Below are positions 4,913 to 60,661 of a stretch of DNA of 64,000 bases, piece after piece. Each line of letters begins with the position of its first letter. Within the stretch, counting starts at the first letter, position 1. Under the pieces are notes generated by a model that saw only the letters and a list, made by a program, of their open reading frames with translations, was not told the origin of the DNA and ran no database searches. The DNA is from an uncultured Gemmatimonadota bacterium. GTDB taxonomy: Bacteria > JAAXHH01. The stretch covers positions 896,001 through 960,000 of the forward strand of contig OX638340.1 of NCBI GenBank assembly GCA_951812955.1, in the 5' to 3' direction. A program made the position numbers and the translations under genes.

Positions 4913-5048
4913 CTCCTGAGGTTACGCGGTGTTGGTTCAGATGGGTTCTGGTTCGGATGATCAGCGTTTCGATTCGGTAGGTTCCTGTGAAAAATAATAG
5001 GAGGCTCTTCGGGTACTGTCAACTGGTATATCCCTTTCAAAAGAGCGC

Positions 5049-5078
5049 TTGACACCTGATACCAAATCGCCGTATTTA
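5049..5078 (+). promoter_or_regulatory. putative sigma70-type promoter (-35 TTGACA 5049-5054, 18-bp spacer, -10 TATTTA 5073-5078) for the UXS-like gene
   Basis: GCGCTTGACACC followed by TATTTA. The ORF-track N-terminus (TTG at 5049) is actually this -35 element. Confidence 0.3.
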
Positions 5079-5132
5079 CCCCTTCATCCCGTTAATAACA
5101 ATGGCCTTGCACGGCCCGGAAAGGAACTGCTT

Positions 5133-6071
5133 TTGCGCGTTGTCGTTACCGGCGGTGCGGGATTCCTGGGATCCCATCTATGCGACCGTTTGCTGTCCGA
5201 CGGCCACCAGGTAGTCGCCGTCGACAATCTGATTACGGGCCGGACCGTAAATATCGCCCACAACATGGACCGCGACGGGTTCTCCTACATCCGGCAGGAC
5301 GTATCCGAGTACCTGGACATCGACGGCGACGTGGACTTCATCATGCACTTCGCCAGTCCCGCCAGTCCGGTGGATTTCGAGCGTGTGCCGATCCAGATCC
5401 TGAAAGTAGGCGCTCTGGGCACGCACAACGCGCTCGGTCTGGCCAGGGCGAAGGGCGCGGGGTTCTTCCTGGCATCCACCTCCGAGGTTTACGGCGACCC
5501 GCAGGTCAACCCGCAGCCGGAAAGCTACTGGGGCAACGTCAACCCGATCGGAGTGCGGGGCGTCTACGACGAGGCCAAGCGCTTCGCGGAGGCGCTGACC
5601 ATGGCCTACCACCGAAAGCACGGCATCGACACGCGGATCGTCAGGATCTTCAACACTTACGGTCCGCGAATGAGGCCTGCGGATGGACGGGTCGCGCCTT
5701 CTTTCATCACCAAGGCGCTCAGGGGCGAACCGCTGACTATCTTCGGAGAGGGGCGGCAGACCCGTAGTTTCTGCTATTACGAGGATCTCATGGAAGGCAT
5801 CGTGCGGCTCATGCATTCCGGCGAGCACGGACCGGTAAACATCGGAAACGAAAACGAAATTACCATACTTGAACTCGCGCGCACCATCCTCCGGCTATGC
5901 GATTCAGACAGCGAGATCGTCTTCCGGCCGCTTCCCCAGGACGATCCACAGCTTAGGCGGCCGGATACGACAAGGGCCCGGGAGATCCTGGACTGGGAAG
6001 CCCGCGTGACTCTGGATGAGGGGATGGGGAAGACCATCGAGTATTTCAGATCCAACGACGCGTCCGGCTGA
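5133..6071 (+). CDS. NAD-dependent epimerase/dehydratase, UDP-glucuronate decarboxylase (UXS)-like
   Basis: N-terminal Rossmann motif [18 protein letters not shown] and downstream YDEAKR catalytic motif. Probable TTG start at 5133, preceded by AAGGAA at 5121-5126. The ORF-track start at 5049 is an over-extension. Confidence 0.75.
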
Positions 6072-34600: not shown

Positions 34601-35725
34601 ATGATTGCAGATATCGCAGAAAAGGTCCTGGCCGGCGCCCGCCTGAGCGCCAACGACGGACGCCGTCTGTTCCGGCACCCGAACGTTACAGAACTGGGCA
34701 TGTTGGCCGACCACGTGCGTCGACGGAAGCACCCCGAACCGGTAGTGACATACAATATCGGCCGTAACATCAATTACACCAACGTGTGCTGGGTGCGGTG
34801 CAAGTTTTGCGCTTTCTACCGCCCGCCGGGCGATGGCGAAGGATACACGCTCCCAGACGAGGAGATTTTCGCCAAGGTCGAGGAACTGATCGACGTCGGG
34901 GGTGACGCGGGGGAGTCCTGCGAGATCCTCATGCAGGGCGGACTCAATCCCAGGCTGAAGATCGACTATTATGAAACCCTCTTCTCGGAAATCACCCGTC
35001 GCTATCCCGCGGCCTATCTCCATTCGCTTTCCGTAGCGGAAATCGTTTACCTCGCCCATATCTCCCGGATCTCGGTCGAAGAAGCGCTGGTCCGTCTGCG
35101 CGCGGCTGGATTGAAGTCCCTCCCGGGCGCCGGCGCCGAAATCCTAGACACCGAAGTCCGCGACGCCATCGCCTTCCGTAAGGAAACGGTTCAGGAGTGG
35201 TTGGACGTACACAGCCTGACCCATCGGCTGGGCATGAAATCGACGGCGACCATGATGTTCGGATCGGTGGAAACCGTCGAGCACCGATTGAATCACCTCC
35301 TCCGTGTTCGCGAAGTACAGGACGAGTCGCTCGCACGCCACGACGGTTACTTCACGGCATTTATCGCCTGGAGCTTCCAACCCGAAGGCACCGAACTGCC
35401 CGATACGCGAAAGGCTACGGGATACGATTACCTGCGGACAGTAGCCATTGCCAGGCTTATGTTGGACAACATAGAGAACATCCAGGCTTCCTACGTAACG
35501 CAGGGACCGAAGATCGCGCAGATCGCTCTCGGTTACGGCGTGAACGATTTCGGCAGCACCATGATGGAAGAAAACGTCATCAGCGCCGGCGGCACGAGTT
35601 TCGTGATGCCCACCCCGGAGATCGAGCGGCTGATCGGCGACGCGGGGTTTATTCCGCGCCGGCGCAACACGCGGTATGAATTCGTAGAAAACGGCACTCC
35701 CGCAAATCATGAATCCGCAGTATAG
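34601..35725 (+). CDS. radical SAM enzyme of the MqnE/MqnC family, paralog 2
   Basis: 374 aa with CWVRCKFC motif and N-terminus GARLSANDGRRLF, paralogous to the upstream gene. Confidence 0.75.
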   Translation: MIADIAEKVLAGARLSANDGRRLFRHPNVTELGMLADHVRRRKHPEPVVTYNIGRNINYTNVCWVRCKFCAFYRPPGDGEGYTLPDEEIFAKVEELIDVGGDAGESCEILMQGGLNPRLKIDYYETLFSEITRRYPAAYLHSLSVAEIVYLAHISRISVEEALVRLRAAGLKSLPGAGAEILDTEVRDAIAFRKETVQEWLDVHSLTHRLGMKSTATMMFGSVETVEHRLNHLLRVREVQDESLARHDGYFTAFIAWSFQPEGTELPDTRKATGYDYLRTVAIARLMLDNIENIQASYVTQGPKIAQIALGYGVNDFGSTMMEENVISAGGTSFVMPTPEIERLIGDAGFIPRRRNTRYEFVENGTPANHESAV

Positions 35726-35859
35726 GCGAACGTACGCCCGGGCCCAACCCGCTCGTCCCGCCCAACCTGGCGGATTCGCCAATACCGCGACCACCTGGAT
35801 GAACAGGCTGTAATCACCGCCGGAAGGCGTTGACGGAGCAACCGGCGGACGATTGAAGC

Positions 35860-36675
35860 ATGGTCTCTAAAACCCGTCTTAACGCCGTGAGTTTTCTGAA
35901 TACCAGGCCCTTGACCTATGGCCTGGAACGCGGAGGCCGGGATCACGGATTCGAAATCCTCTATGATATCCCCTCCGTATGCGCCAGGCAGGTGAGGACG
36001 GGCGAAGCCTCGGCGGGCGTCATTCCCAGCATCGAATACGCACGCAGTGCGGTACCTTACTCAATCGTTCCCGAGGTATCCATCGCATCCAACGGTCCAG
36101 TCGCCAGCATTCTACTGTTCCACAGGGTGCCGGTCCGGGGCATCCGAAAGGTCGCGATGGATGTGAGTTCCCGGACAGCCGCGGCCCTGGTCCATATCGT
36201 CCTGTATGAGCGGTACGGCCTGGAAATCGAATCGGTCGACCACCCGCCGGACGTATCTGCGATGCTTGAACGGGCGGACGCGGCCCTGGTCATCGGCGAT
36301 CCTGCCCTGGAGAATACGAACCGGCCCGAACCCCGTCTGGACCTGGGGCAGGCATGGCGGGAACTGACCGGGTTGCCTTTTGTGTACGCCTTCTGGGCGG
36401 GGAAGGATGGTGGTCTCACGCCCGGCGAGGTCGAACTGCTGATCGCGTCGAAGAACCAGGGGATGTCCGCCTTCGACGAGATCGCCGAAGTTCACGCGAG
36501 GGACCGCTCACATCCGACTTCGTACTACGCGTCGTACCTCAGCGATAACCTGGTTTACGACCTGGGAGAAGAGGAACAACGAGGACTCATGGAGTTTTAC
36601 GGGATGGCCCATGTTCGCGGCCTGATCCCGTACGTACCGGAATTGCGTTTTTATCCGCGTCAAGGAAGGAGATGA
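35860..36675 (+). CDS. MqnA/MqnD-family protein (PF02621, futalosine-pathway menaquinone biosynthesis)
   Basis: 271 aa with the N-terminal SFLNTRPL motif typical of MqnA-like periplasmic-binding-fold enzymes. Confidence 0.7.
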   Translation: MVSKTRLNAVSFLNTRPLTYGLERGGRDHGFEILYDIPSVCARQVRTGEASAGVIPSIEYARSAVPYSIVPEVSIASNGPVASILLFHRVPVRGIRKVAMDVSSRTAAALVHIVLYERYGLEIESVDHPPDVSAMLERADAALVIGDPALENTNRPEPRLDLGQAWRELTGLPFVYAFWAGKDGGLTPGEVELLIASKNQGMSAFDEIAEVHARDRSHPTSYYASYLSDNLVYDLGEEEQRGLMEFYGMAHVRGLIPYVPELRFYPRQGRR

Positions 36676-37637
36676 TCATGGCATCGGCAACAACGGTCGG
36701 CATCGGCACGGGAAGCAACCGCCGCGAGAACGTGCGCGTGGCGGTGGAACGCTCCGCCCCGCAATTGGCCTCCCTCATGGGGGAAGAGGTCATGCTCAAG
36801 CCTAATTTCCTCTCCGGCACCAACCCGGTGGTATGCACCCACCCGGACGCGGTCCGCGGCGTGCTGGACGTCATCATGACCCTGCCGGAGAAACCGCGCC
36901 GGGTACTGATCGCAGAGGGCGGCAATGAATCCGTGCCGGGAGAGTGCTTCCGTCACATGGGATACACCGACATCCCGGACGAATACGACATCCCCATCGA
37001 ACTGGTGGACCTGAACCAGGAGACCAGGTGGCGAAATACCCGGGTGTACATGGTCGACGGCACCTGGACTACGGTCAGGATGCCGCGTACCGTGCTGGAC
37101 TGTCCCTGCGTTATCTCGGTCGCCGTGGCCAAGACCCATGACGGCGCCATGGTTACCCTGGCGCTGAAGAATCTCATCATGGGTACGATATTGAAGAAAG
37201 ACCGAATCAAGGTCCATGGCTATACGACCCACCACGACCGGCGCCATCCTCCGGAAGCCCGGGCGCTCAGCAGGAACCTGATCCGCCTCGCCCGCCACCT
37301 CTACCCCCACTACAGCGTGGTGGACGGTACGGTCGGCATACAGGGTAACGGTCCAGGGGGAACTGACACCGTGCCGCTGGGCCTGGCGGCGGCCGGGGAG
37401 GACACCATCGCCGTGGACGCCGTCATTTCAAAGGCCATGGGATTCGAACCATTGGAGGTGGGAACGGTATTCTACGGGGACGCAATCGGCCTGGGCGTGG
37501 GCGATCTGGAACGCATCTGCGTGAACGGCGGACGGCTGGATGAACTTGCCCTGTCCTTCAAGGGGCATGAATCCATCGATCTGCAGCGTCAGTGGGCTTT
37601 CGAAGGCGCGTGGGAATCGGCGGCGGTCGGCGGTTGA
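36672..37637 (+). CDS. DUF362 domain protein
   Basis: 321 aa. The ATG at 36672 overlaps the mqnA/D stop by 4 bp (ATGA), suggesting translational coupling. The last 7 codons plus stop are copied into the downstream 22-bp repeat array. Confidence 0.6.
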   Translation: MIMASATTVGIGTGSNRRENVRVAVERSAPQLASLMGEEVMLKPNFLSGTNPVVCTHPDAVRGVLDVIMTLPEKPRRVLIAEGGNESVPGECFRHMGYTDIPDEYDIPIELVDLNQETRWRNTRVYMVDGTWTTVRMPRTVLDCPCVISVAVAKTHDGAMVTLALKNLIMGTILKKDRIKVHGYTTHHDRRHPPEARALSRNLIRLARHLYPHYSVVDGTVGIQGNGPGGTDTVPLGLAAAGEDTIAVDAVISKAMGFEPLEVGTVFYGDAIGLGVGDLERICVNGGRLDELALSFKGHESIDLQRQWAFEGAWESAAVGG

Positions 37638-37712
37638 AACGGCGGCGGTCGGCGGTTGAAACGGCGGCGGTCGACGGTTGAAACGGCGGCGGTCGACGGT
37701 TGAAACGGCGGG
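37618..37712. repeat. tandem repeat, 22-bp unit CGGCGGCGGTCG(G/A)CGGTTGAAA, about 4.3 copies
   Basis: Near-perfect copies at 37618, 37640, 37662 and 37684 plus a partial. The array begins within the last codons of the DUF362 gene and includes its stop, and fills the convergent gap to the minus-strand aminotransferase. Confidence 0.85.
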
Positions 37713-37737
37713 GACACAGGCATCTACAGGTTTGAGA

Positions 37738-39006
37738 TCAATGCCCCGGCAGGACATCTGGGACGCGCAGCACCTCTTCTTCCGTGTTGTAGAAGTGCGG
37801 TGAAATGCGAATGCCACCCCCGCGGCGGGCGCCGATAATCTGGTGGCTTCGCAACGTTCGATGCAGGTCTTCGGTCTCGTGGACCGGGCTGTCGAAGGTC
37901 ACGATACCCGACCATTCGGACTCGCCCCGTGGACTCAGGACGCGGAAGCCCGAGTCGCACAGGGCTTCGGCCAGTCGGTCGGTCAACTGGCGCAGCCTCT
38001 CCTGTACAACGTCGATACCCACCTCCAGCAGCAGTTCCAGCGAAGCCCCCAGCGCGTGTATGCCCAGCGTGTTGTGGGATCCGCATTCGAAGCGGCGCGC
38101 CGTCGGCGCCGGGGTCGGATCGTAGACGTCGTAGTTGCCCGCATTAGCCACCGAATTCCAACCCACCTCGTAGAGCCTCAACTGCTCGGTCATGTGTGGC
38201 GCGCAGTAGAAGATGCCGATCCCTTCGGGACTCAGAAGCCATTTGTGTCCATCGGCCGTGAGGATGTCGATATTCATCGCATCCACGTCAACCGGAGTCT
38301 GACCGAGGGATTGTATGGCGTCGACGACGAAACAGACGCCCTTTTCCCGGCATAGAGCGCCGATCGCAGCAATGTCGTTGCGGAATCCGTTACCGTACTC
38401 GACGTGGCTGATGGAGACTGCGCGCGTCCTGGAATCGATCCTGTCCGAGATCGCATCCACCGTGAGACGGCCGTCCACGGACTTGACCATCCGCGTTTCC
38501 ACTCCGTCTCGCGAGAGATTAAGCCACGGATATACGTTGGATGGAAATTCGAGGTCGTTCAGGACCACGTTGTCGCCCCTGCGCCAGTCGATGCCGTTGG
38601 CGGCAAAACAGAGCCCTTCCGTGGTATTCTTGACAAATGCGATCTGACTGGGATCGGCGTTGATCAGCCTGGCCGACCGGGACCGGGCGGTCTCGATAGC
38701 CGATTCCCAGTCGCGGTAGTTGGAGGCGGCGTACTCGCTGAAATCCGCTGCATAGGCTCGCACGGCCTCGAAGGCGCGGCCGGGCAACGTGCCGACCGCA
38801 GCGTGGTTCAGGTAGGTACAGTGGTGGACAACAGGAAATTCCTGGCGGATGCGGTCCAGGTTCAATAGAGGCCGTTCCGGTTCTGCGGGAAGGAGCAGGT
38901 TGGTGACTGCCGCCGATTGATGCGAAGCCGGGATCGATTCGAAAGCGGTCCGATCAGAAACTTGCCGCGGCGTCCTCCGTCGAGTCGAAAATATTGAATA
39001 CGGCAT
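37738..39006 (-). CDS. class V aminotransferase-fold PLP-dependent enzyme (cysteine desulfurase/IPN-epimerase-like)
   Basis: 422-aa ORF with YLNHAAVG N-terminal motif and PLP-lysine context (DGHKWL). The annotated ATG start overlaps the STAS gene by 53 bp, so the true start may be a downstream non-ATG codon. Confidence 0.7.
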   Translation of the reverse strand: MPYSIFSTRRRTPRQVSDRTAFESIPASHQSAAVTNLLLPAEPERPLLNLDRIRQEFPVVHHCTYLNHAAVGTLPGRAFEAVRAYAADFSEYAASNYRDWESAIETARSRSARLINADPSQIAFVKNTTEGLCFAANGIDWRRGDNVVLNDLEFPSNVYPWLNLSRDGVETRMVKSVDGRLTVDAISDRIDSRTRAVSISHVEYGNGFRNDIAAIGALCREKGVCFVVDAIQSLGQTPVDVDAMNIDILTADGHKWLLSPEGIGIFYCAPHMTEQLRLYEVGWNSVANAGNYDVYDPTPAPTARRFECGSHNTLGIHALGASLELLLEVGIDVVQERLRQLTDRLAEALCDSGFRVLSPRGESEWSGIVTFDSPVHETEDLHRTLRSHQIIGARRGGGIRISPHFYNTEEEVLRVPDVLPGH

Positions 39007-41273: not shown

Positions 41274-41454
41274 GCGATTACCATCGTGGAGAACCGGTCA
41301 GAAACCGCTTGCGACCGTTTCGCTGTCCGGCTATATTTGACCCGTTTCCTCTTAAGGTATGGCAACAGGATTCGGATGGCGCGCGCATTTCCACGGCGGT
41401 CGTTCGTTCCACGCTTTCCGCTCCGAATATCCTCTCAATCGACGGAGTATTGGA

Positions 41455-42744
41455 ATGGCCAGAAAAAAGCAAGCTGCCAGAAAAAAGCAAGCTGAAGGAA
41501 GTAAAAAAGCAGCAGTTAAAAACAATCGAGCCATCGGGATGGCGGACACCATAGACGAATTGAAAAAGACGCTCGGTAGCACCGGTCCGGCCGAGGTGGA
41601 CAACGAGGAATACTGGCGCGCCGTGCGGGCCCAGTTTCCGTACAATGGTTCGATACGATACACCAATAACGGGACGATAGGCATCCTGCCCCACATGGTC
41701 CTGCAGGCCCAGATCGCCACCCTGAAGGAGGCGGAGGTTCAGGATGGGGATACCGGGGGCGTCGCCTATCCCGCTCCCCACGAAGCCCACGGGAAGCTGG
41801 CCGCGCTGATCAACGCGGATCCCAGCGAGGTCGCCATTACGCGGAATTCGACCGAGAGCATGAACATCATCGCCCTCGGACTCGACCTGAAACCGGAAGA
41901 CGAGATCCTGACCACGACGCACGAGCATTACGGCGGCTGGTCCTGCTGGCAGCATCGGCACGCCCTCTTCGGAAACCCGATCCGGAAACTCGACCTATAC
42001 GATCCGCCTGAAGACGAAGACGAGATCGTGGGGCTGATCGAAGAAGCCATTCGGCCGGAAACCCGCGTGCTCAGTTTCTGCCATGTCACCTGCACCACGG
42101 CCTGGCGCCTGCCCGTCAAGAAGATCTGCGCGATGGCCCGCAAGCGGGGGCTTATTACGGTCGTCGACGGCGCCCAGTCTGTGGGCATGATCGCGGTCGA
42201 CGTGAAGGACCTAGGCGGTGATTTCTACGTAAGCAGCACGCACAAATGGCTTTTTACGCCCAAAGGTACGGGCCTGTTGTACGTGGATGAGGCGGCACAG
42301 GACACGATCACGCTGGGTTACTACTCCGGAGGCGGCCGGCTGACGGCGAGGCGTTTCGAGAACAACGCGAGCCAGAGCTACGCGCCGTTCGTGGGGTTCG
42401 CCTTGGCCGTGGATTTCCACAACGCCATCGGTACCAGTCTGATCGAGGACCGCGGCGCGGCCATGGCGAAGTGGCTCAAGACCCGTCTTTCCGATATACC
42501 CGGCGTCCGTGTGTGGACACCCATGAGCCGCGGGCTGTCCGCATCCATGGTTTCCTTCTCCATCGCCGGCATGACCTCCTCCGACGTGGGTACGCCGCTC
42601 AGGGAACGGTACCGTATACACAGCCGCGGCCTGCACGAAGGCGGATATCACGGCGCCCGCATTTCCTGCGCCATGCACAACAGTTATGATGAGATGGAGC
42701 AAGTCGTTAGCGCCGTGCAAGAAATCGCGGCGAACCGGTGCTGA
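41455..42744 (+). CDS. class V aminotransferase-fold PLP-dependent enzyme with lysine-rich N-terminal extension
   Basis: Start MARKKQAARKKQA... (ATG at 41455, GGAG 8 nt upstream). IRYTNNGTIG and SSTHKW PLP-lysine motifs. An 18-bp x2 perfect in-frame repeat at 41458-41493 encodes ARKKQA twice. An alternative start lies at M(ADTID) 41539. Confidence 0.7.
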   Translation: MARKKQAARKKQAEGSKKAAVKNNRAIGMADTIDELKKTLGSTGPAEVDNEEYWRAVRAQFPYNGSIRYTNNGTIGILPHMVLQAQIATLKEAEVQDGDTGGVAYPAPHEAHGKLAALINADPSEVAITRNSTESMNIIALGLDLKPEDEILTTTHEHYGGWSCWQHRHALFGNPIRKLDLYDPPEDEDEIVGLIEEAIRPETRVLSFCHVTCTTAWRLPVKKICAMARKRGLITVVDGAQSVGMIAVDVKDLGGDFYVSSTHKWLFTPKGTGLLYVDEAAQDTITLGYYSGGGRLTARRFENNASQSYAPFVGFALAVDFHNAIGTSLIEDRGAAMAKWLKTRLSDIPGVRVWTPMSRGLSASMVSFSIAGMTSSDVGTPLRERYRIHSRGLHEGGYHGARISCAMHNSYDEMEQVVSAVQEIAANRC

Positions 42745-49231: not shown

Positions 49232-50737
49232 ATGGACTATAATGGATTGCAGGTCGCGACGCTCGATGAGTCTCTGAGCGACGCCATTGCCGCGCGCGGT
49301 GGCAAACCTGTGGTATCCAGGGCGGACGACACGGAGAGCCTGGATTCCTTTCTTGAAAACCTGGCACGGGACGACATCGCCGTACTGTTACTGACAGAAC
49401 CTGAACATGTCCGTGCGTTGTTCGGTCGCGCGTCCGCAACAGGGCGCGTCGAGCCCCTGCTGGATGCAGTCAGGCAAATTGCCGTGGGTTCGGCGGGACC
49501 CGCGTGCACGAAAATCTGGAGAAACCACCATCTTTCCGTCGATTTCGAACCTGACGGGACCGGCGGAGAAGCACTCGTGTCGGGCATGGCGCGCCTCGCC
49601 GCATACCTGGTCAACAAGAAACGCACCGCCGTGGACAGTGGGGTGGACACCTCGCACTGGCAACGCATCGACATGCGGTGGCATTTCGAAAGCGATCCCT
49701 ACGGAACCCGGGGCGAGTCTGCCTTCCTCCGGGCGTGCCGCCGGGAACCGACGGAATATACGCCCGTATGGCTGCTGCGTCAGGCGGGCCGATACCAGCG
49801 GGCCTATCGGGAACTGAAATCCGACCTGGATTTCCTGGACATGTGCAAGACCCCGGAACTCACCGCCGAGATCACGTTGATGGCCGTAGAACGCCTGGGG
49901 GTGGACGCCGCCATCCTATTCGCAGACATCCTCCCGCTGCTGCAACCGATGGGCTTCCACCTGGAATACGTCAAGGGACAGGGACCCGTCATTCGCAATC
50001 CGATTCGGTCGGACCGGGCCGTGGATCAACTCGAGGAGGAAGGACCGGAATCCCAGCATTTCGTTTACGAGGCCATCCGCATGGCATTGCCGGCGCTTCC
50101 ACCCCATATCCCGCTCATCGGTTTTTCCGGCGCTCCATTCACCCTGGCCGCCTATGCCATCGAGGGGCAGAGTTCGCGGGACTTCAGGCGCGTCAAGACC
50201 TTCATGTATTCCGAACCGAGGGCCTGGCATGCCTTGATGGCGAAACTGGCGAGAACCGTCACGGCCTACCTCAACGAACAGATCGAGGCGGGCGTTCATG
50301 CCGTACAGTTATTCGACAGCTGGGCAGGCTGCCTTTCGCCCGATGATTACAGGACATTCGTCCTTCCCCATACCGGGTACGTCTTCTCCAATCTGCGCCC
50401 CGGCGTTCCTTCCATACATTTCGGGGTCTGCACCGGTTCTCTGCTCGATTTGATGCGGGAGGCGGGTGGTGAGGTCATCGGGCTGGATTGGCGCGTGGAC
50501 CTGTCCGAAGCATGGCAGGACCTTGAACACGAGGTGGCGGTCCAGGGAAACCTGGATCCCATGGTCCTCTTTTCGTCCCCCGATGTAATCCGCCAGCATG
50601 CGGCGACCGTCCTGCACAAGGCCGGGGGACGTCCCGGACATGTCTTCAACCTGGGTCACGGCATACTGCCCGGCACACCGGAAGACCACGTCATCGCGCT
50701 CGTGGACGCCGTGCATGAATTGGGAATCGCTCGATGA
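49232..50737 (+). CDS. hemE: uroporphyrinogen decarboxylase HemE with an N-terminal ~150-aa HemD (uroporphyrinogen-III synthase, HEM4)-like half-domain in the same reading frame
   Basis: C-terminal ~350 aa is canonical HemE (FLRACRREPTEYTPVWLLRQAGRYQRAYR...). The N-terminal 150 aa resembles one HEM4 domain. There is no stop between the two parts, and an RBS and promoter precede the ATG at 49232. An alternative reading is a separate HemE start at M150 (ATG 49673). Confidence 0.75.
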   Translation: MDYNGLQVATLDESLSDAIAARGGKPVVSRADDTESLDSFLENLARDDIAVLLLTEPEHVRALFGRASATGRVEPLLDAVRQIAVGSAGPACTKIWRNHHLSVDFEPDGTGGEALVSGMARLAAYLVNKKRTAVDSGVDTSHWQRIDMRWHFESDPYGTRGESAFLRACRREPTEYTPVWLLRQAGRYQRAYRELKSDLDFLDMCKTPELTAEITLMAVERLGVDAAILFADILPLLQPMGFHLEYVKGQGPVIRNPIRSDRAVDQLEEEGPESQHFVYEAIRMALPALPPHIPLIGFSGAPFTLAAYAIEGQSSRDFRRVKTFMYSEPRAWHALMAKLARTVTAYLNEQIEAGVHAVQLFDSWAGCLSPDDYRTFVLPHTGYVFSNLRPGVPSIHFGVCTGSLLDLMREAGGEVIGLDWRVDLSEAWQDLEHEVAVQGNLDPMVLFSSPDVIRQHAATVLHKAGGRPGHVFNLGHGILPGTPEDHVIALVDAVHELGIAR

Positions 50738-52155
50738 AAGTCGTCGTGGTCGGCGGGGGCATAGCCGGGTTGAGCGCCGCGCACCGGCTGGCGGAAACGA
50801 AACGTCACGACCTGGAAGTGACGCTGCTGGAGCGGACGGACCGATTCGGTGGCACGATACGCACGATCGAGCTCGGCGGATGTCTGGTCGAACTGGGTCC
50901 GGATTCCTTTCTTTCGTCCAAGCCCTGGTTGACGCAACTGGCTGAGCGATTGGGCGTGGCTGATCGGATCATCGCCACTGCAACCACCCATCGCAGGTCC
51001 CACGTCGTCCATCGCGGCAAGCTGCACCCGTTGCCCGACGGGTTCCTGATGATGGCGCCTACCCGCCTCTGGCCCATGGTGACCACTTCGCTTTTTTCGT
51101 GGACGGGCAAGATCCGGTGCGCTTTGGACCTGGTACTGCCACGTTCGCGTGCAACCGGAGACGAGAGTCTGGGCGCGTTCGTCCGCCGGCGTTTCGGCGG
51201 AGAGGTGCTCGAGCGCGTCGTACAACCGCTCATCGGGGGCATCTATGCGGGAGACCCCGATAGGCTCAGCCTGAAGGCCACCATCCCGCGGTTCCTCGAG
51301 ATGGAAACCCGATACCGCAGTGTCATACGGGCCATGGTCGCACAGCGGCGCGCGGCCGCCCGGCGCGGAGGCGGTCCCACGGCCGGCAGCGGCGCGCGCT
51401 ACGGTGAACTGGTCACCTTCGACCATGGCATGAAAACCATCGTGCAGGCGTTGATGGAAAGCCTTCCGGAAGAAACGATGCGCACGCATTCCGACGTCGT
51501 GAGCCTGAGCCGCGAAGGGGACCTCTGGCGTCTGGCATGCGGCGACGGACAGCATATCGATGCGGATGCGGTCATTCTTGCCCTGCCTGCCCGAAAGGCC
51601 GCGGATCTGCTTCGCGGCATCGAAACGGGCCTTCATGATGAACTGTCGGCCATCCCCCACGCGTCGACGGCCGTCCTGAACCTCGTGTACCGGCGTTCGG
51701 ATGTGCCCCATCCCATGGACTGCTTCGGGTTTGTGGTTCCCGCGGTAGAGGAACGGGATATCATCGCCTGCACCTTCAGCAGCGTTAAGTTCCCGAACCG
51801 GGCGCCGGAGGACCACGTGCTGTTGCGCGCTTTCATCGGCGGCGCCCGGCAGCGGCACATGCTCGGTTTCGATGACGGGGAGCTGAACCGGATCGTCCGG
51901 GCGGAGCTGAAAGACCTCATGGGCATCGAAGCCGCTCCTCTTCACACCGCGCTTGCCCGGTACCCGGACGCCATGCCCCAGTACCTCGTCGGCCATAGCC
52001 GGCGCGTTGAGCGGATCGAATCACTGCTCGATCGGTATCCCGGACTTGCGTTGGCAGGCAATGCCTATGGCGGCGTGGGCCTGCCCGATTGCGTGCGTTC
52101 GGGTGAACAGGCAGCGGAGCGGGTACTGGAGATGGAGGAGAACGGCTCCCGTTAG
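50734..52155 (+). CDS. hemY: protoporphyrinogen/coproporphyrinogen oxidase (HemY/CgoX-family FAD amine-oxidase fold)
   Basis: 473 aa with N-terminal FAD motif VVVVGGGIAGLSAA. ATGA overlap with the hemE stop. The last 8 codons plus stop are tandemly copied downstream. Confidence 0.8.
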   Translation: MKVVVVGGGIAGLSAAHRLAETKRHDLEVTLLERTDRFGGTIRTIELGGCLVELGPDSFLSSKPWLTQLAERLGVADRIIATATTHRRSHVVHRGKLHPLPDGFLMMAPTRLWPMVTTSLFSWTGKIRCALDLVLPRSRATGDESLGAFVRRRFGGEVLERVVQPLIGGIYAGDPDRLSLKATIPRFLEMETRYRSVIRAMVAQRRAAARRGGGPTAGSGARYGELVTFDHGMKTIVQALMESLPEETMRTHSDVVSLSREGDLWRLACGDGQHIDADAVILALPARKAADLLRGIETGLHDELSAIPHASTAVLNLVYRRSDVPHPMDCFGFVVPAVEERDIIACTFSSVKFPNRAPEDHVLLRAFIGGARQRHMLGFDDGELNRIVRAELKDLMGIEAAPLHTALARYPDAMPQYLVGHSRRVERIESLLDRYPGLALAGNAYGGVGLPDCVRSGEQAAERVLEMEENGSR

Positions 52156-52238
52156 CAGATGGAGAAGGGCGACTTTCGCTAGCAGTTGAAGGAGCACGAC
52201 TCCTGTTCGGAGATGGAGCAGGGCGACTCTTGTTGACC
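52129..52238. repeat. 4 degenerate tandem copies of a 27-bp unit (GATGGAG-AGGGCGACT-T-GTTAGCA-like) starting in the last codons of hemY
   Basis: Units at 52129-52157, 52158-52184, 52185-52211 and 52212-52238. In the hemY frame they read EMEENGSR*, QMEKGDFR*, QLKEHDSCS and EMEQGDSC*. Three of the four keep an in-frame stop. Confidence 0.8.
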
Positions 52239-52276
52239 GACGCCGCCCGCGGGATTCATGCGTCGTGTTCCCGTTC

Positions 52277-52378
52277 TCCGGATGACATTCAATCCGTCCC
52301 CCGGTCCCGCAGCATCGTGTTCCAGCTCGCCGGATGCCATTCAAGCAGTCCCCTGGTCCCGCAGCATCGCAATCGCCG
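52277..52378. repeat. direct repeat, about 50 bp x2 (period 52 bp, about 88% identity over the 41-bp core), spanning the sulP stop codon
   Basis: R2 (52329-52378) is the 3' end of sulP on the minus strand (...AIAMLRDQGTA*). R1 (52277-52326), downstream of the stop, translates on the minus strand to a degenerate copy NTMLRDRGTD* with its own TGA. Confidence 0.7.
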
Positions 52379-53969
52379 TCTTCCGGGCTTCCTCCATGCT
52401 TCCGACCAGGCGCCAATCGGGGATGCTCCTTACGATGTCGAAGGACTTCAGTGTTTTAGATGCTGCGCCCGAGAGTCCCATCACGATCGTACCGGTTTTC
52501 TGTTCTTCGGCGACCTCAAACAGCCGTTGAATCACAAGGGCCGCACTGTCGTCCACATACTGGGTGTCAGAAAAATCGAAGATGACCACCTGGTGTTCCT
52601 TGATGTCTTCACCAATGGCCATGACCAGTTTCCTTGATGAAGCGATGGTAAAGCTACCCCTGAGAGAGACCAGACCCACCCGAGCTGTATGGGGTTCCAC
52701 ACCGGCCTGGATTCCTTCGGTGGAGAAAAACTCGCGGTCCAACAGGGGCACTGAGACCACGTTGTCGAGCTCCAGGTGTTCCAGCTGCCGGGCGTGGACC
52801 ATCCCGGCGGCGATCAGCCCGATGGCCACTGCCGTGATCAGATCGATGAAAACCGTGAGGCCCAGCGTGAGCGCCATCACCAGCAGATGTTCCCGCTGGA
52901 GACGATGAATCCGGGCGAGTACCCGCCAGTCGATGATGTTCCATCCGACCACAATGAGGATACCGGCCAGGACGGCATGGGGAACCGGCTCGACAAACCT
53001 GCCCAACCCGAGTAGAATCAACAGCAGGAACACGGCGCGCAGAACGCCTGAGACCGGAGTCTGTCCTCCCGAACGGATATTCGCCACGGTACTGACGGTG
53101 GCACCTGATCCAGGAAGACCGCCAAACAGCCCTGCCGCCATGTTGCCTATACCCTGACCCACCAGTTCCCGGTCAGGATTATGGCTTGATCCCGTGAGCG
53201 AATCCGCGATGAGGCAGGCGAGCAGACTGTCCACGGAGCCCAAAAGGGCGATAATCAGCGCGGGTTGGACCGCATACAGCAGAAACGACCAGGAAGGCAA
53301 CTGGAACTGTAGCGCGGGCAGTCCGGCCGGTATCTCTCCAATAACCGGCACGTCACTCAGCCAGAATACGCCCACCATCGTGCCGGCCAGCAAAGCCAGC
53401 AAGGGCGCGGGCACGTACCGGCTCAGCTGCCGAGGCCAGAAAACCGCCAGGACAAGGGTGACCACGGCGATGGCTACTGCGCTGAAGTTCGTGCTGTTCA
53501 ATGCATCGGGAAGGGATCGGATCGCGGCAAGTGCGCCCCCAGGGGCGACAGGCGTGCCGAGAAACGGAAGGGCCTGCATGAGGATGATGATGATGCCGAT
53601 ACCGGACATGAATCCGGATACAACCACATGGGGGGTGTAGGCGATGTATCGGCCCAAATTGGAAATACCCAGCAGCACCTGGATCGCTCCGGCGAGCATG
53701 ACAACGATCAGCGCCTCCGAGAGCGTGCTCACCTGGCTGGTGACGATTAACGCCATCGCGATCGTGACGGATGGCGCAGGACCGGAAACCACCGTCCGCG
53801 TGCCGCCGAACACTGAAGCAAAGAAACCTACCGCGATCGCGCCGTACATGCCCGCGGCCGCACCCATGCCGGACGCAACGCCAAAGGCCAGTGCGAAAGG
53901 CAATGACACCACGGCGGAGGTGAGTCCGCCGGTAAAATCACCTCTGAATGTACCCGGATCATACTTCAA
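52341..53969 (-). CDS. SulP-family sulfate/anion permease with C-terminal STAS domain
   Basis: 542 aa with a SulP-type N-terminus (FRGDFTGGLTSAVVSLPFALAFGVASG), many TM segments and a C-terminal STAS region. Confidence 0.85.
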   Translation of the reverse strand: MKYDPGTFRGDFTGGLTSAVVSLPFALAFGVASGMGAAAGMYGAIAVGFFASVFGGTRTVVSGPAPSVTIAMALIVTSQVSTLSEALIVVMLAGAIQVLLGISNLGRYIAYTPHVVVSGFMSGIGIIIILMQALPFLGTPVAPGGALAAIRSLPDALNSTNFSAVAIAVVTLVLAVFWPRQLSRYVPAPLLALLAGTMVGVFWLSDVPVIGEIPAGLPALQFQLPSWSFLLYAVQPALIIALLGSVDSLLACLIADSLTGSSHNPDRELVGQGIGNMAAGLFGGLPGSGATVSTVANIRSGGQTPVSGVLRAVFLLLILLGLGRFVEPVPHAVLAGILIVVGWNIIDWRVLARIHRLQREHLLVMALTLGLTVFIDLITAVAIGLIAAGMVHARQLEHLELDNVVSVPLLDREFFSTEGIQAGVEPHTARVGLVSLRGSFTIASSRKLVMAIGEDIKEHQVVIFDFSDTQYVDDSAALVIQRLFEVAEEQKTGTIVMGLSGAASKTLKSFDIVRSIPDWRLVGSMEEARKTAIAMLRDQGTA

Positions 53970-59153: not shown

Positions 59154-60311
59154 ATGACCATCGGCGTCCCTACTGAAACCAGTCCGGGCGAGCGGCGCGT
59201 ATCCATCGTTCCGGCCGGGGTTTCCAACCTGGTGAAGGCGGGATGCGCCGTCCGGGTCTCCGCGGGCGCGGGCCGGGAGGCGGGCATCTCGGACGCAGAA
59301 TACGAAGAAGCCGGCGCCACAGTCGTGCAGGAGCGCGGATCCGTATTCGACGAGTCCGACGTGATCGTGCAGGTAAGAGGCGGCGGCGCGAATCCCGACT
59401 CAGGCATGGCGGACGTGGAGCGATTGCGCGAGGGACAGGTGCTGATCAGTTTCCTGGAACCGTTGTCGGCCCCGGCGGAGATCAAGGCGCTCTCCAACCG
59501 GCGGGTGACCGCCTGCGCCATGGAATTCATACCGCGGACATCCCGTGCGCAAAGCATGGACGCCCTTTCTTCCCAGGCCAACATCGGGGGGTACAAGGCC
59601 GCGCTGGTAGCGGCCGAATACCTGCCCAGACTTTTCCCCATGATGATGACCGCGGCCGGGACCATAACGCCCGCCCACATTTTCGTGGTCGGCGTCGGTG
59701 TGGCCGGGCTGCAGGCCATCGCCACGTGCAAGCGGCTGGGCGCCGTGATCCAGGCCTACGACGTGCGTCCCGCCGTCAAGGAGCAGGTCCAGAGCGTCGG
59801 GGCCCGGTTCGTGGAGCTGGAACTGGATACGGCCGATTCGGAAGGATCGGGTGGGTACGCCCAGGCCATGGACGAGCAGTTCTATGCAAAACAACGCGAG
59901 ATGATGGCCCGCGTCGTATCTGAAAACGACGTCGTGATCACCACGGCCGCCGTACCCGGCAAGCCAGCGCCCGTGCTGGTTACAGAAGACATGATTAAAA
60001 GCATGCGGCCCGGCTCGGTCGTGATCGATCTCGCTGCGGAGCGGGGGGGAAACTGCGAAATCACCGAACCCGGCAGGACCGTCGTCAAGCACGGCGTGAC
60101 GCTCGTGGGCGAGGTGAATCTTCCTTCAACCGTGCCCTTTCATGCCAGCCAGATGTATTCCAACAACATCGTGAATTTCCTTAAGCTGATGATAAACGAC
60201 GGTACGCTTGACGTGGGCATCGACGACGACATCGTGCAAGGCGCAACGGTAACCCGCGACGGCGAGATCGTCAACGAGCAGGTGAGCGCCCTGCTTACCG
60301 AAGCCGGGTGA
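59154..60311 (+). CDS. pntA: NAD(P) transhydrogenase subunit alpha part 1 (PntAA, alanine-dehydrogenase-like dI domain)
   Basis: 385 aa with N-terminus IGVPTETSPGERRVSIVP and Rossmann region VVGVGVAGLQAIA diagnostic of PntAA. Confidence 0.85.
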   Translation: MTIGVPTETSPGERRVSIVPAGVSNLVKAGCAVRVSAGAGREAGISDAEYEEAGATVVQERGSVFDESDVIVQVRGGGANPDSGMADVERLREGQVLISFLEPLSAPAEIKALSNRRVTACAMEFIPRTSRAQSMDALSSQANIGGYKAALVAAEYLPRLFPMMMTAAGTITPAHIFVVGVGVAGLQAIATCKRLGAVIQAYDVRPAVKEQVQSVGARFVELELDTADSEGSGGYAQAMDEQFYAKQREMMARVVSENDVVITTAAVPGKPAPVLVTEDMIKSMRPGSVVIDLAAERGGNCEITEPGRTVVKHGVTLVGEVNLPSTVPFHASQMYSNNIVNFLKLMINDGTLDVGIDDDIVQGATVTRDGEIVNEQVSALLTEAG

Positions 60312-60379
60312 CGGGCGGAGCGACTGCGATCGAAGCCGGGTGACGAGCGGAGCACCATCGAACGAAGCGAGGAGTTCCC

Positions 60380-60661
60380 ATGGGTGAAACCATTGCCATT
60401 CTGACTATATTCGTCCTGGCGGTATTCGTCGGATTCGAAGTCATAACCAAGGTGCCGCCCATATTGCATACGCCGCTCATGTCGGGCTCGAACGCCATAT
60501 CGGGCATCACGATCATTGGCGCCATCCTGTCGGCCGGGGCACAGTACAGCACGCTGACAACCGTCCTCGGCTTCGCCGCGGTGGTCTTCGCGACCATCAA
60601 CGTGGTCGGCGGCTACCTCGTTACCAACCGCATGCTGGACATGTTCAAGGGAAAGGAGTAG
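60380..60661 (+). CDS. NAD(P) transhydrogenase subunit alpha part 2 (PntAB, membrane)
   Basis: 93 aa with three TM helices; typical PntAB sequence (PLMSGSNAISGITIIGA). Confidence 0.8.
   Translation: MGETIAILTIFVLAVFVGFEVITKVPPILHTPLMSGSNAISGITIIGAILSAGAQYSTLTTVLGFAAVVFATINVVGGYLVTNRMLDMFKGKE

Follow-up and report, generated by a model that had tools for sequence, protein, structure and literature searches.

A 22-bp tandem array carrying the stop codon of a DUF362 gene varies in copy number among sponge and coral symbionts

In a 64-kb stretch of DNA from an uncultured Gemmatimonadota bacterium (contig OX638340.1; hereafter the window), the 3' end of a DUF362 gene is repeated head-to-tail: a 22-bp unit, which consists of the last codons of the gene, its TGA and two further nucleotides, is present four times, and closely related genomes carry one to three full units at the same place. 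The array is flanked by microhomology, and other duplications containing stop codons have arisen repeatedly in the same gap and at other gene ends. We consider it probable, at roughly 85%, that the array is a neutral minisatellite of variable copy number (VNTR), generated by slipped-strand mispairing or unequal exchange at the end of the DUF362 gene. As such, it challenges nothing in current understanding, and its added value lies only in the recurrent, lineage-wide occurrence of duplications that contain a stop codon.

The array and its flanking genes

The array lies at the junction of two convergent genes, both of which are recognized by Pfam. The features of the region are as follows:

36672 to 37637, plus strand: DUF362 gene (PF04015, E = 1e-37), with an open reading frame from 36672; the start in relatives is the ATG equivalent to 36678 (319 aa), and the TGA is at 37635 to 37637
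37614 to 37623, plus strand: upstream microhomology GAATCGGCGG, inside the DUF362 gene; its ancestral single-copy partner lies 22 bp downstream (GAAWCGGC...)
37618 to 37639, plus strand: unit 1 (CGGCGGCGGTCGGCGGTTGAAA), the native copy, with the last DUF362 codons, the TGA and 2 nt
37640 to 37661, plus strand: unit 2, identical to unit 1 and non-coding; TGA in frame +1 relative to DUF362
37662 to 37683, plus strand: unit 3, the G-to-A variant GTCGAC, which L046, the closest relative, has as its second unit; TGA in frame +2
37684 to 37705, plus strand: unit 4, identical to unit 3; TGA in frame 0
37706 to 37711, plus strand: partial unit CGGCGG, the original downstream microhomology arm; the junction ...GAAACGGCGG-GGACAC is also found in L001, L039, L046, L047 and L050
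37712 to 37737, no strand: unique remainder of the gap (GGACACAGGCATCTACAGGTTTGAGA), conserved in the clade
37738 to 38865, minus strand: class-V aminotransferase gene (PF00266, E = 1e-57), convergent with DUF362; stop at 37738 to 37740 and TTG start at 38865 (375 aa), as called in relatives

The open frame of the aminotransferase reaches up to 39006, and the protein P0157 is identical to the 375-aa form of the window except for the start residue.

The first-pass annotation of this stretch had described a near-perfect array of four 22-bp units, and the sequence, TRF and a pattern search all agree with this description. TRF places the array at 37614-37711, with a period of 22, 4.5 copies, 97% matches and a score of 175, the highest in the window. 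A search of the 64 kb with the degenerate unit returned four matches without mismatches (at 37618, 37640, 37662 and 37684), 100 shuffles of the sequence yielded none, and no further copy was found in the window with up to three mismatches allowed. The four exact units (37618-37705) and the terminal partial unit give the sequence …GGGAAT-CGGCGGCGGTCGGCGGTTGAAA-CGGCGGCGGTCGGCGGTTGAAA-CGGCGGCGGTCGACGGTTGAAA-CGGCGGCGGTCGACGGTTGAAA-CGGCGG-GGACACAGGCATCTACAGGTTTGAGA-TCAATG…, in which units 1 and 2 (…GTCGGCGG…) and units 3 and 4 (…GTCGACGG…) are pairwise identical and the pairs differ by a single G/A, in the register starting at 37618. The array had also been thought to fill the whole convergent gap; this goes too far, as it covers 74 of the 100 bp (37638-37737) and leaves 26 bp (37712-37737) in front of the aminotransferase stop.

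The same annotation had read the unit as a copy of the final DUF362 codons with their TGA, and the comparison with homologs bears this out. The reading frame ends with GCG GCG GTC GGC GGT TGA within unit 1, and the corresponding C-terminus WE(S/T)AAVGG is found in all DUF362 homologs at 93-99% identity, with AAVG retained in a homolog at 77%. Relatives thus share this ending, which identifies unit 1 as the native gene end and the three units behind the stop codon as copies of it. It had further been argued that a period that is no multiple of 3 does not befit a coding repeat, and indeed only unit 1 is coding. As 22 equals 1 modulo 3, the TGAs of the successive units fall into frames 0, +1, +2 and 0, which is a by-product of the period.

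Several other classes of repeats were considered and rejected. The array is not a CRISPR array, as its units abut, with a period equal to the unit length of 22 bp and no spacers; the unit end GTTGAAAC merely resembles the ends of some CRISPR repeats. Nor does it belong to a dispersed family of the REP, MITE or MIRU type, as the 64-kb window holds no other copy of the unit, and the units that make up its remaining arrays, or those of relatives, are unrelated to it. MIRUs (mycobacterial interspersed repetitive units) are intergenic tandem repeats of variable number at gene junctions, and include the stop codon of the gene upstream, with one family of 40-100 bp being dispersed over many loci. The array resembles them in having intergenic, variable tandem units with the upstream stop codon at a gene junction, but its unit is specific to this locus, without another copy in 64 kb and with different units in other lineages and at other junctions.

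Copy number among related genomes

By scanning genome and metagenome collections and by exact-protein look-ups, we collected about 50 related loci. They stem from sponge and coral metagenome bins, which their submitters labelled as Gemmatimonadota or Latescibacterota. In a neighbor-joining tree of the flanking genes, all carriers of the 22-bp unit fall into one clade, and its sister L027 is free of the array. Within the clade, the flanks are 92-97% identical to those of the window at the nucleotide level, and the number of units varies as listed below, where counts refer to full units including the native one, and every allele has an additional terminal partial unit of 6-10 bp:

1 full unit: L031, L041, L042, L044, L045, L047
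1.7 units, with a deletion at the junction: L002
2 full units: L043, L046, L050
3 full units: the L001/L032 group, L039
4 full units: the window, the largest allele seen

Expressed as copies, the numbers in the clade are 1, 1.7, 2, 2.5, 3.5 or 4.5. Alleles from 1 to 4.5 copies all encode the same …AAVGG end, with the native stop codon in unit 1.

The most direct view of this variation comes from pairs of nearly identical contigs. L046 (two units) and L047 (one unit) encode the same DUF362 protein; across 3.2 kb, a 22-bp gap and two mismatches are all that separates them. As the second unit of L046 is the GTCGAC variant of units 3 and 4 of the window, this variant must be old, with L047 having lost it recently. 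Likewise, L043 shares its DUF362 protein with L041, L042, L044 and L045, and has two units where these have one; it is 98.7% identical to L031 over 4.8 kb with just one gap, and 96.7-98.7% identical to the single-unit loci L031, L041, L042 and L044. Here, the two units of L043 are perfectly identical, which speaks for a recent gain. In L039, a lineage-specific GTA codon of the gene is present in all three units, which indicates either turnover or homogenization of the units. The lineage of L032, by contrast with these cases, is constant: 3.5 copies are found in all five complete independent assemblies (99.1-99.7% identical), with one SNP in the array, and the locus is therefore not hypervariable on the shortest time scales. 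Judging from these alleles, it behaves as a VNTR at the scale of strains and species, and not as a hypervariable site. The first-pass annotation had suspected a recent or actively varying array, possibly a VNTR, and had proposed a comparison of strains; carried out on relatives, this comparison finds 1 to 4.5 copies at 92-97% identity and two pairs, L046/L047 and L043/L031, that are one unit apart.

The locus thus combines a tandem unit of at least about 10 bp with whole-unit variation between close genomes and conserved flanks, two of the features by which a VNTR is recognized. The bacterial VNTRs or minisatellites used as MLVA loci have the same appearance, with head-to-tail units of 10-100 bp at one locus, conserved flanks, whole-unit differences between close strains and an origin that is attributed to slipped-strand mispairing. 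They differ in that they are known from typed isolates, whereas the polymorphism described here is seen between metagenome assemblies of uncultivated sponge and coral symbionts only, and in that the unit described here can be recognized as a copy of the adjacent gene's terminal codons together with its stop.

Given that the copy number of four in the window comes from a single assembly, it has to be asked whether the array, or its copy number, was produced by expansion or collapse during assembly. Five short-read contigs (L025, L035, L037, L038 and L045) do end inside the array or at most about 35 bp behind it, and look-ups with the exact proteins (DUF362 with 321 and 319 aa, the 422-aa aminotransferase reading frame and P0157) returned no second assembly of the strain in the window. 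Yet more than ten assemblies, made independently by different pipelines and from different samples, show the same 22-bp array; at 98 bp, with a longest exact internal repeat of 37 bp, it can be resolved by ordinary reads and by k-mers above 37; and the ordered AABB pattern of its variants is not easily made by a collapsed or over-expanded graph. We therefore regard an assembly artefact as highly unlikely. The five broken contigs come from different samples, and two of them, L025 and L038, stop at the identical base (…CTACAGGTTA); heterogeneity between strains could explain why the assembly graph breaks here.

Another reading, in which the units are phased protein-binding sites of the iteron or operator type, draws on the regular phasing of 22 bp, about two helical turns, and on the palindromic GTCGAC core of units 3 and 4. 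The unit is, however, a copy of local coding sequence that occurs nowhere else in the 64 kb, its sequence and number vary between close relatives, other lineages have unrelated units, and the region lacks any replication or plasmid context. Such sites are, accordingly, extremely improbable.

Probable slippage at the gene end and possible functions

The single-copy alleles suggest how a VNTR could have started at this gene end. In L031, L041, L042, L044 and L047, they have the sequence GAATCGGCGGCGGTCGGCGGTT-GAA(T/A)CGGC(A/G)GGGACACC and read GAATCGGC-GGCGGTCGGCGGTT-GAATCGGC, that is, an 8-bp direct repeat with a period of 22 bp. Short direct repeats are a classic substrate of slippage. We propose, based on this anatomy and on what is established about repeat instability, that exchange occurred between two direct repeats of 8-10 bp (GAAWCGGCGG), which lie 22 bp apart and bracket the last DUF362 codons and the stop. 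Slipped-strand mispairing or unequal exchange between these two arms would yield exactly the products seen: with every slip, the stretch behind the native stop would grow or shrink by a single 22-bp unit, and units would thereby pile up in the gap between the two convergent genes. As added units lie behind the native stop, they leave the DUF362 protein unaltered, and the change would escape purifying selection. Since its lineage and that of its closest relative parted, the allele of the window would have undergone at least two further single-unit duplications (from unit 1 to 2 and from unit 3 to 4). The direct repeat of 8-10 bp is also present in the array-free sister L027, where, as in many other relatives, TGAAACGG(CGG) lies just behind the stop codon, and CGGCGGT recurs with a 7-bp period inside the DUF362 gene end, as detected by TRF. 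The flanking repeat of 8-10 bp could be the relic of an older array instead of a chance substrate.

The folding of the two strands has some likeness to slipped hairpins of the (CGG)n type, which favor slippage. As single-stranded DNA, the G-rich strand (…CGGCGGCGGTCGGCGG…) is predicted to form an imperfect CGG-type hairpin with C-G pairs and mismatches (z = -2.15), and its C-rich complement remains unfolded (z = +3.69); a fold asymmetry of this kind between strands is associated with slippage. Unlike in triplet repeats, however, the unit is 22 bp long, and shuffled sequences fold almost as well. A G-quadruplex seems unlikely, since the GG-C-GG runs of the unit give a hand-computed G4Hunter-type score of about 0.7 per base, under the usual thresholds.

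It had been suggested in the first-pass annotation that the array affects the termination of both transcripts, and this suggestion found no positive support: no intrinsic terminator with a hairpin and a U-tract was found on either strand of 37500-37800, where the plus-strand hairpins lack a U-tract; Rfam models matched nowhere in the window at the gathering score, nor in 37450-37900 at E ≤ 1; and neither copy number nor gap length is conserved. A consensus scan of the array found no promoter-like site. We also rejected a contingency locus, as the stop in unit 1 precludes a frame shift and the array has no promoter-like site.

A more specific possibility is that selection keeps the array as a 3' element, be it as a rut-like loading site for Rho on the aminotransferase RNA, as a spacer between the convergent genes or as a stop trap for DUF362 in three frames. 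Rut sites are C-rich, G-poor and unstructured stretches of untranslated RNA of about 70-80 nt, with 3' ends that depend on Rho. The minus-strand RNA over the array, with about 48% C and 22% G, fits this composition and folds unusually poorly (z = +2.74), less well than 199 of 200 shuffles. Rho-dependent 3' ends would be the prediction from this, and the missing conservation of copy number and gap length speaks against a selected role. Furthermore, TGA is present in all three plus-strand frames, and in some relatives the two stops are 6-7 bp apart, so that more spacing could in principle help. However, close relatives manage with one or two units and four lineages have kept a gap of 6-7 bp, the C-richness mirrors the G-rich gene end that was copied into the unit, arrays derived from the aminotransferase end in L005 and L015 do not have this composition, and a hairpin with a U-tract is missing. 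Maintenance by selection is thus very unlikely. We found no evidence for a function of the array, and it is most likely neutral; this neutrality is what the lack of conservation in copy number, unit sequence and gap length suggests.

Duplications at this and other gene ends

The gap between the DUF362 and aminotransferase genes has been the site of duplications more than once. Its length ranges from 6 to 194 bp among relatives, with 6-7 bp in L004, L007, L018 and L022, and five other lineages show independent tandem duplications in it, with other periods and registers:

L008: 17 bp, 3.1 copies, beside another, longer copy of the gene end that is older
L011: 19 bp, 2.6 copies, 100% identical
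L005: 20 bp, 2.2 copies, a duplication of the aminotransferase end that includes the stop codon
L015: 23 bp, likewise derived from the end of the aminotransferase gene, with some positions masked by N
L019: 23 bp, 3.3 copies, internal to the gap

Together with the 22-bp array, this amounts to six independent origins among about 22 lineages. In local alignments, the similarity between gap and gene end exceeds that of shuffled gaps (p ≤ 0.006) at 8 of 20 loci, namely in the window, L001, L039, L002, L005, L008, L011 and L014; by the same shuffle test it is not significant in L003, L010, L013, L016, L017, L019 and L020. With just these 8 of 20 loci, the idea that all long gaps are decayed copies of a gene end is not supported. 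In L013, the gap (~4975-5010) holds an insert that is A+T-rich, in contrast to the otherwise G+C-rich locus, and free of repeats, with the palindrome CAGTTTTTTAAAAAACT; L016 and L017, of the same subclade, have such inserts as well. On a smaller scale, L031 and L041-L044 have a 4-bp tandem duplication just before the aminotransferase stop (GATCAATCAATGCCCC, compared to GATCAATGCCCC in the window), which includes the stop codon and is a miniature of the same phenomenon.

Beyond this gap, the other three arrays of the window with a TRF score of at least 90 also contain the stop codon of a Pfam-confirmed gene:

52130 to 52229: 27 bp, 3.7 copies, repeating the 3' end of an amine-oxidase gene (50734 to 52155, plus strand), with the stop at 52155
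52263 to 52369: 52 bp, 2.1 copies, including the stop (52341 to 52343) of a SulP transporter gene (52341 to 53969, minus strand)
60299 to 60368: 32 bp, 2.2 copies; unit 1 comprises the final codons of pntAA (59154 to 60311) with its TGA (60309 to 60311), at the operon junction before pntAB (60380 to 60661)

The first two fill one convergent gap, between the amine-oxidase and SulP genes, and each consists of the last codons and the stop of its neighboring gene. Counting every array that scores 50 or more in TRF, the density per 10 kb is 1.25 in the window, 2.25 in 213 kb of sequence from relatives, and 0.2 in a single 50-kb sample of E. coli, which serves only as a rough control.

As a duplication that spans a stop codon leaves the reading frame intact, it can survive, and the simplest reading is that duplications whose length is no multiple of 3 are purged from coding sequence and persist in gaps or when they carry a stop codon. 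The DUF362 array belongs to a wider tendency of this genome and its relatives to retain short tandem duplications where genes end. In a survey of 5374 prokaryotic genomes, tandem repeats are described as more common downstream of stop codons and as rarer inside coding sequence (PMC12418385, NAR 2025), a pattern that the four strongest arrays of the window follow. The parts of this survey available to us describe no repeat unit that contains a stop codon, and they suggest possible regulatory roles, in contrast to the neutral survival proposed here (PMC12418385). In the literature on these sponge and coral symbionts, we found no description of tandem repeats.

One may go further and suppose that the intergenic spacers of this lineage were largely made de novo by tandem duplications across stop codons. 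Behind this could stand a mutational signature specific to the lineage, such as unusually slippage-prone replication or repair, or else selection that separates convergent genes whose stops are 6-7 bp apart, with the 22-bp array providing the aminotransferase transcript with a C-rich, unstructured stretch for the loading of Rho. We consider this broader scenario unlikely.

The VNTR at the DUF362 gene end is of modest practical use as a strain marker for an uncultivated clade of sponge or coral symbionts, in which sizing a PCR product over 37590-37740 would separate alleles of one to at least four units; short-read assemblies of these genomes are also prone to break at this point. In addition, it illustrates neatly how tandem duplications pass or fail under selection, with those that carry a stop persisting and being able to lengthen very short convergent gaps. 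Given the recurrence of such duplications, with six origins at one gap and three other gene ends in 64 kb, a genome-wide census in this lineage may be worthwhile.

Several further repeats were seen in these genomes. A 25-bp tandem unit (AGCGCAGGATGACTTCATGATCACG), which takes in both the TGA of the first radical-SAM mqn gene and the ATG of the second, so that their entire 4-bp junction is duplicated, is present in 2.0 copies in L002 (1887-1935) and in 2.9 copies in L039 (858-929), with 97-100% identity. The intergenic region between the STAS and indolepyruvate-oxidoreductase genes harbors large tandem arrays that differ by lineage, of 48 bp with 3.6 copies in L001 (6701-6872, equal to L032 5695-5866), of 24 bp with 4.5 copies in L014 (6760-6866) and of 59 bp with 2.1 copies in L018 (6653-6774). 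In L033, this region has 2.6 copies where L032 has 3.6, and is thus another polymorphic locus. Finally, the window contains a perfect, A-rich, in-frame duplication of 18 bp with 2.1 copies at 41458-41494 (GCCAGAAAAAAGCAAGCT), which encodes ARKKQA twice. It belongs to the N-terminal extension that another class-V aminotransferase reading frame (41359 to 42744) has ahead of its Pfam domain, which starts only at residue 134.

As to the gene neighborhood, relatives share an order of two radical-SAM mqn genes, mqnA and DUF362, followed by the convergent aminotransferase and the STAS gene. In the window, 34601-37637 constitutes a futalosine-pathway cluster with two mqnC/E-like radical-SAM genes, mqnA and DUF362. 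In every relative, down to 77% identity, DUF362 lies directly behind mqnA, either abutting it or with a 4-bp overlap (36672-36675 in the window), an arrangement that hints that the DUF362 protein may be functionally linked to menaquinone synthesis. The aminotransferase gene, on the other hand, is deleted in L006 (~4966-5160), where about 50 bp of its 3' end are left and the STAS gene directly follows DUF362, and in L012 (~4966-5000); with its deletion in two relatives, it is dispensable in the clade.
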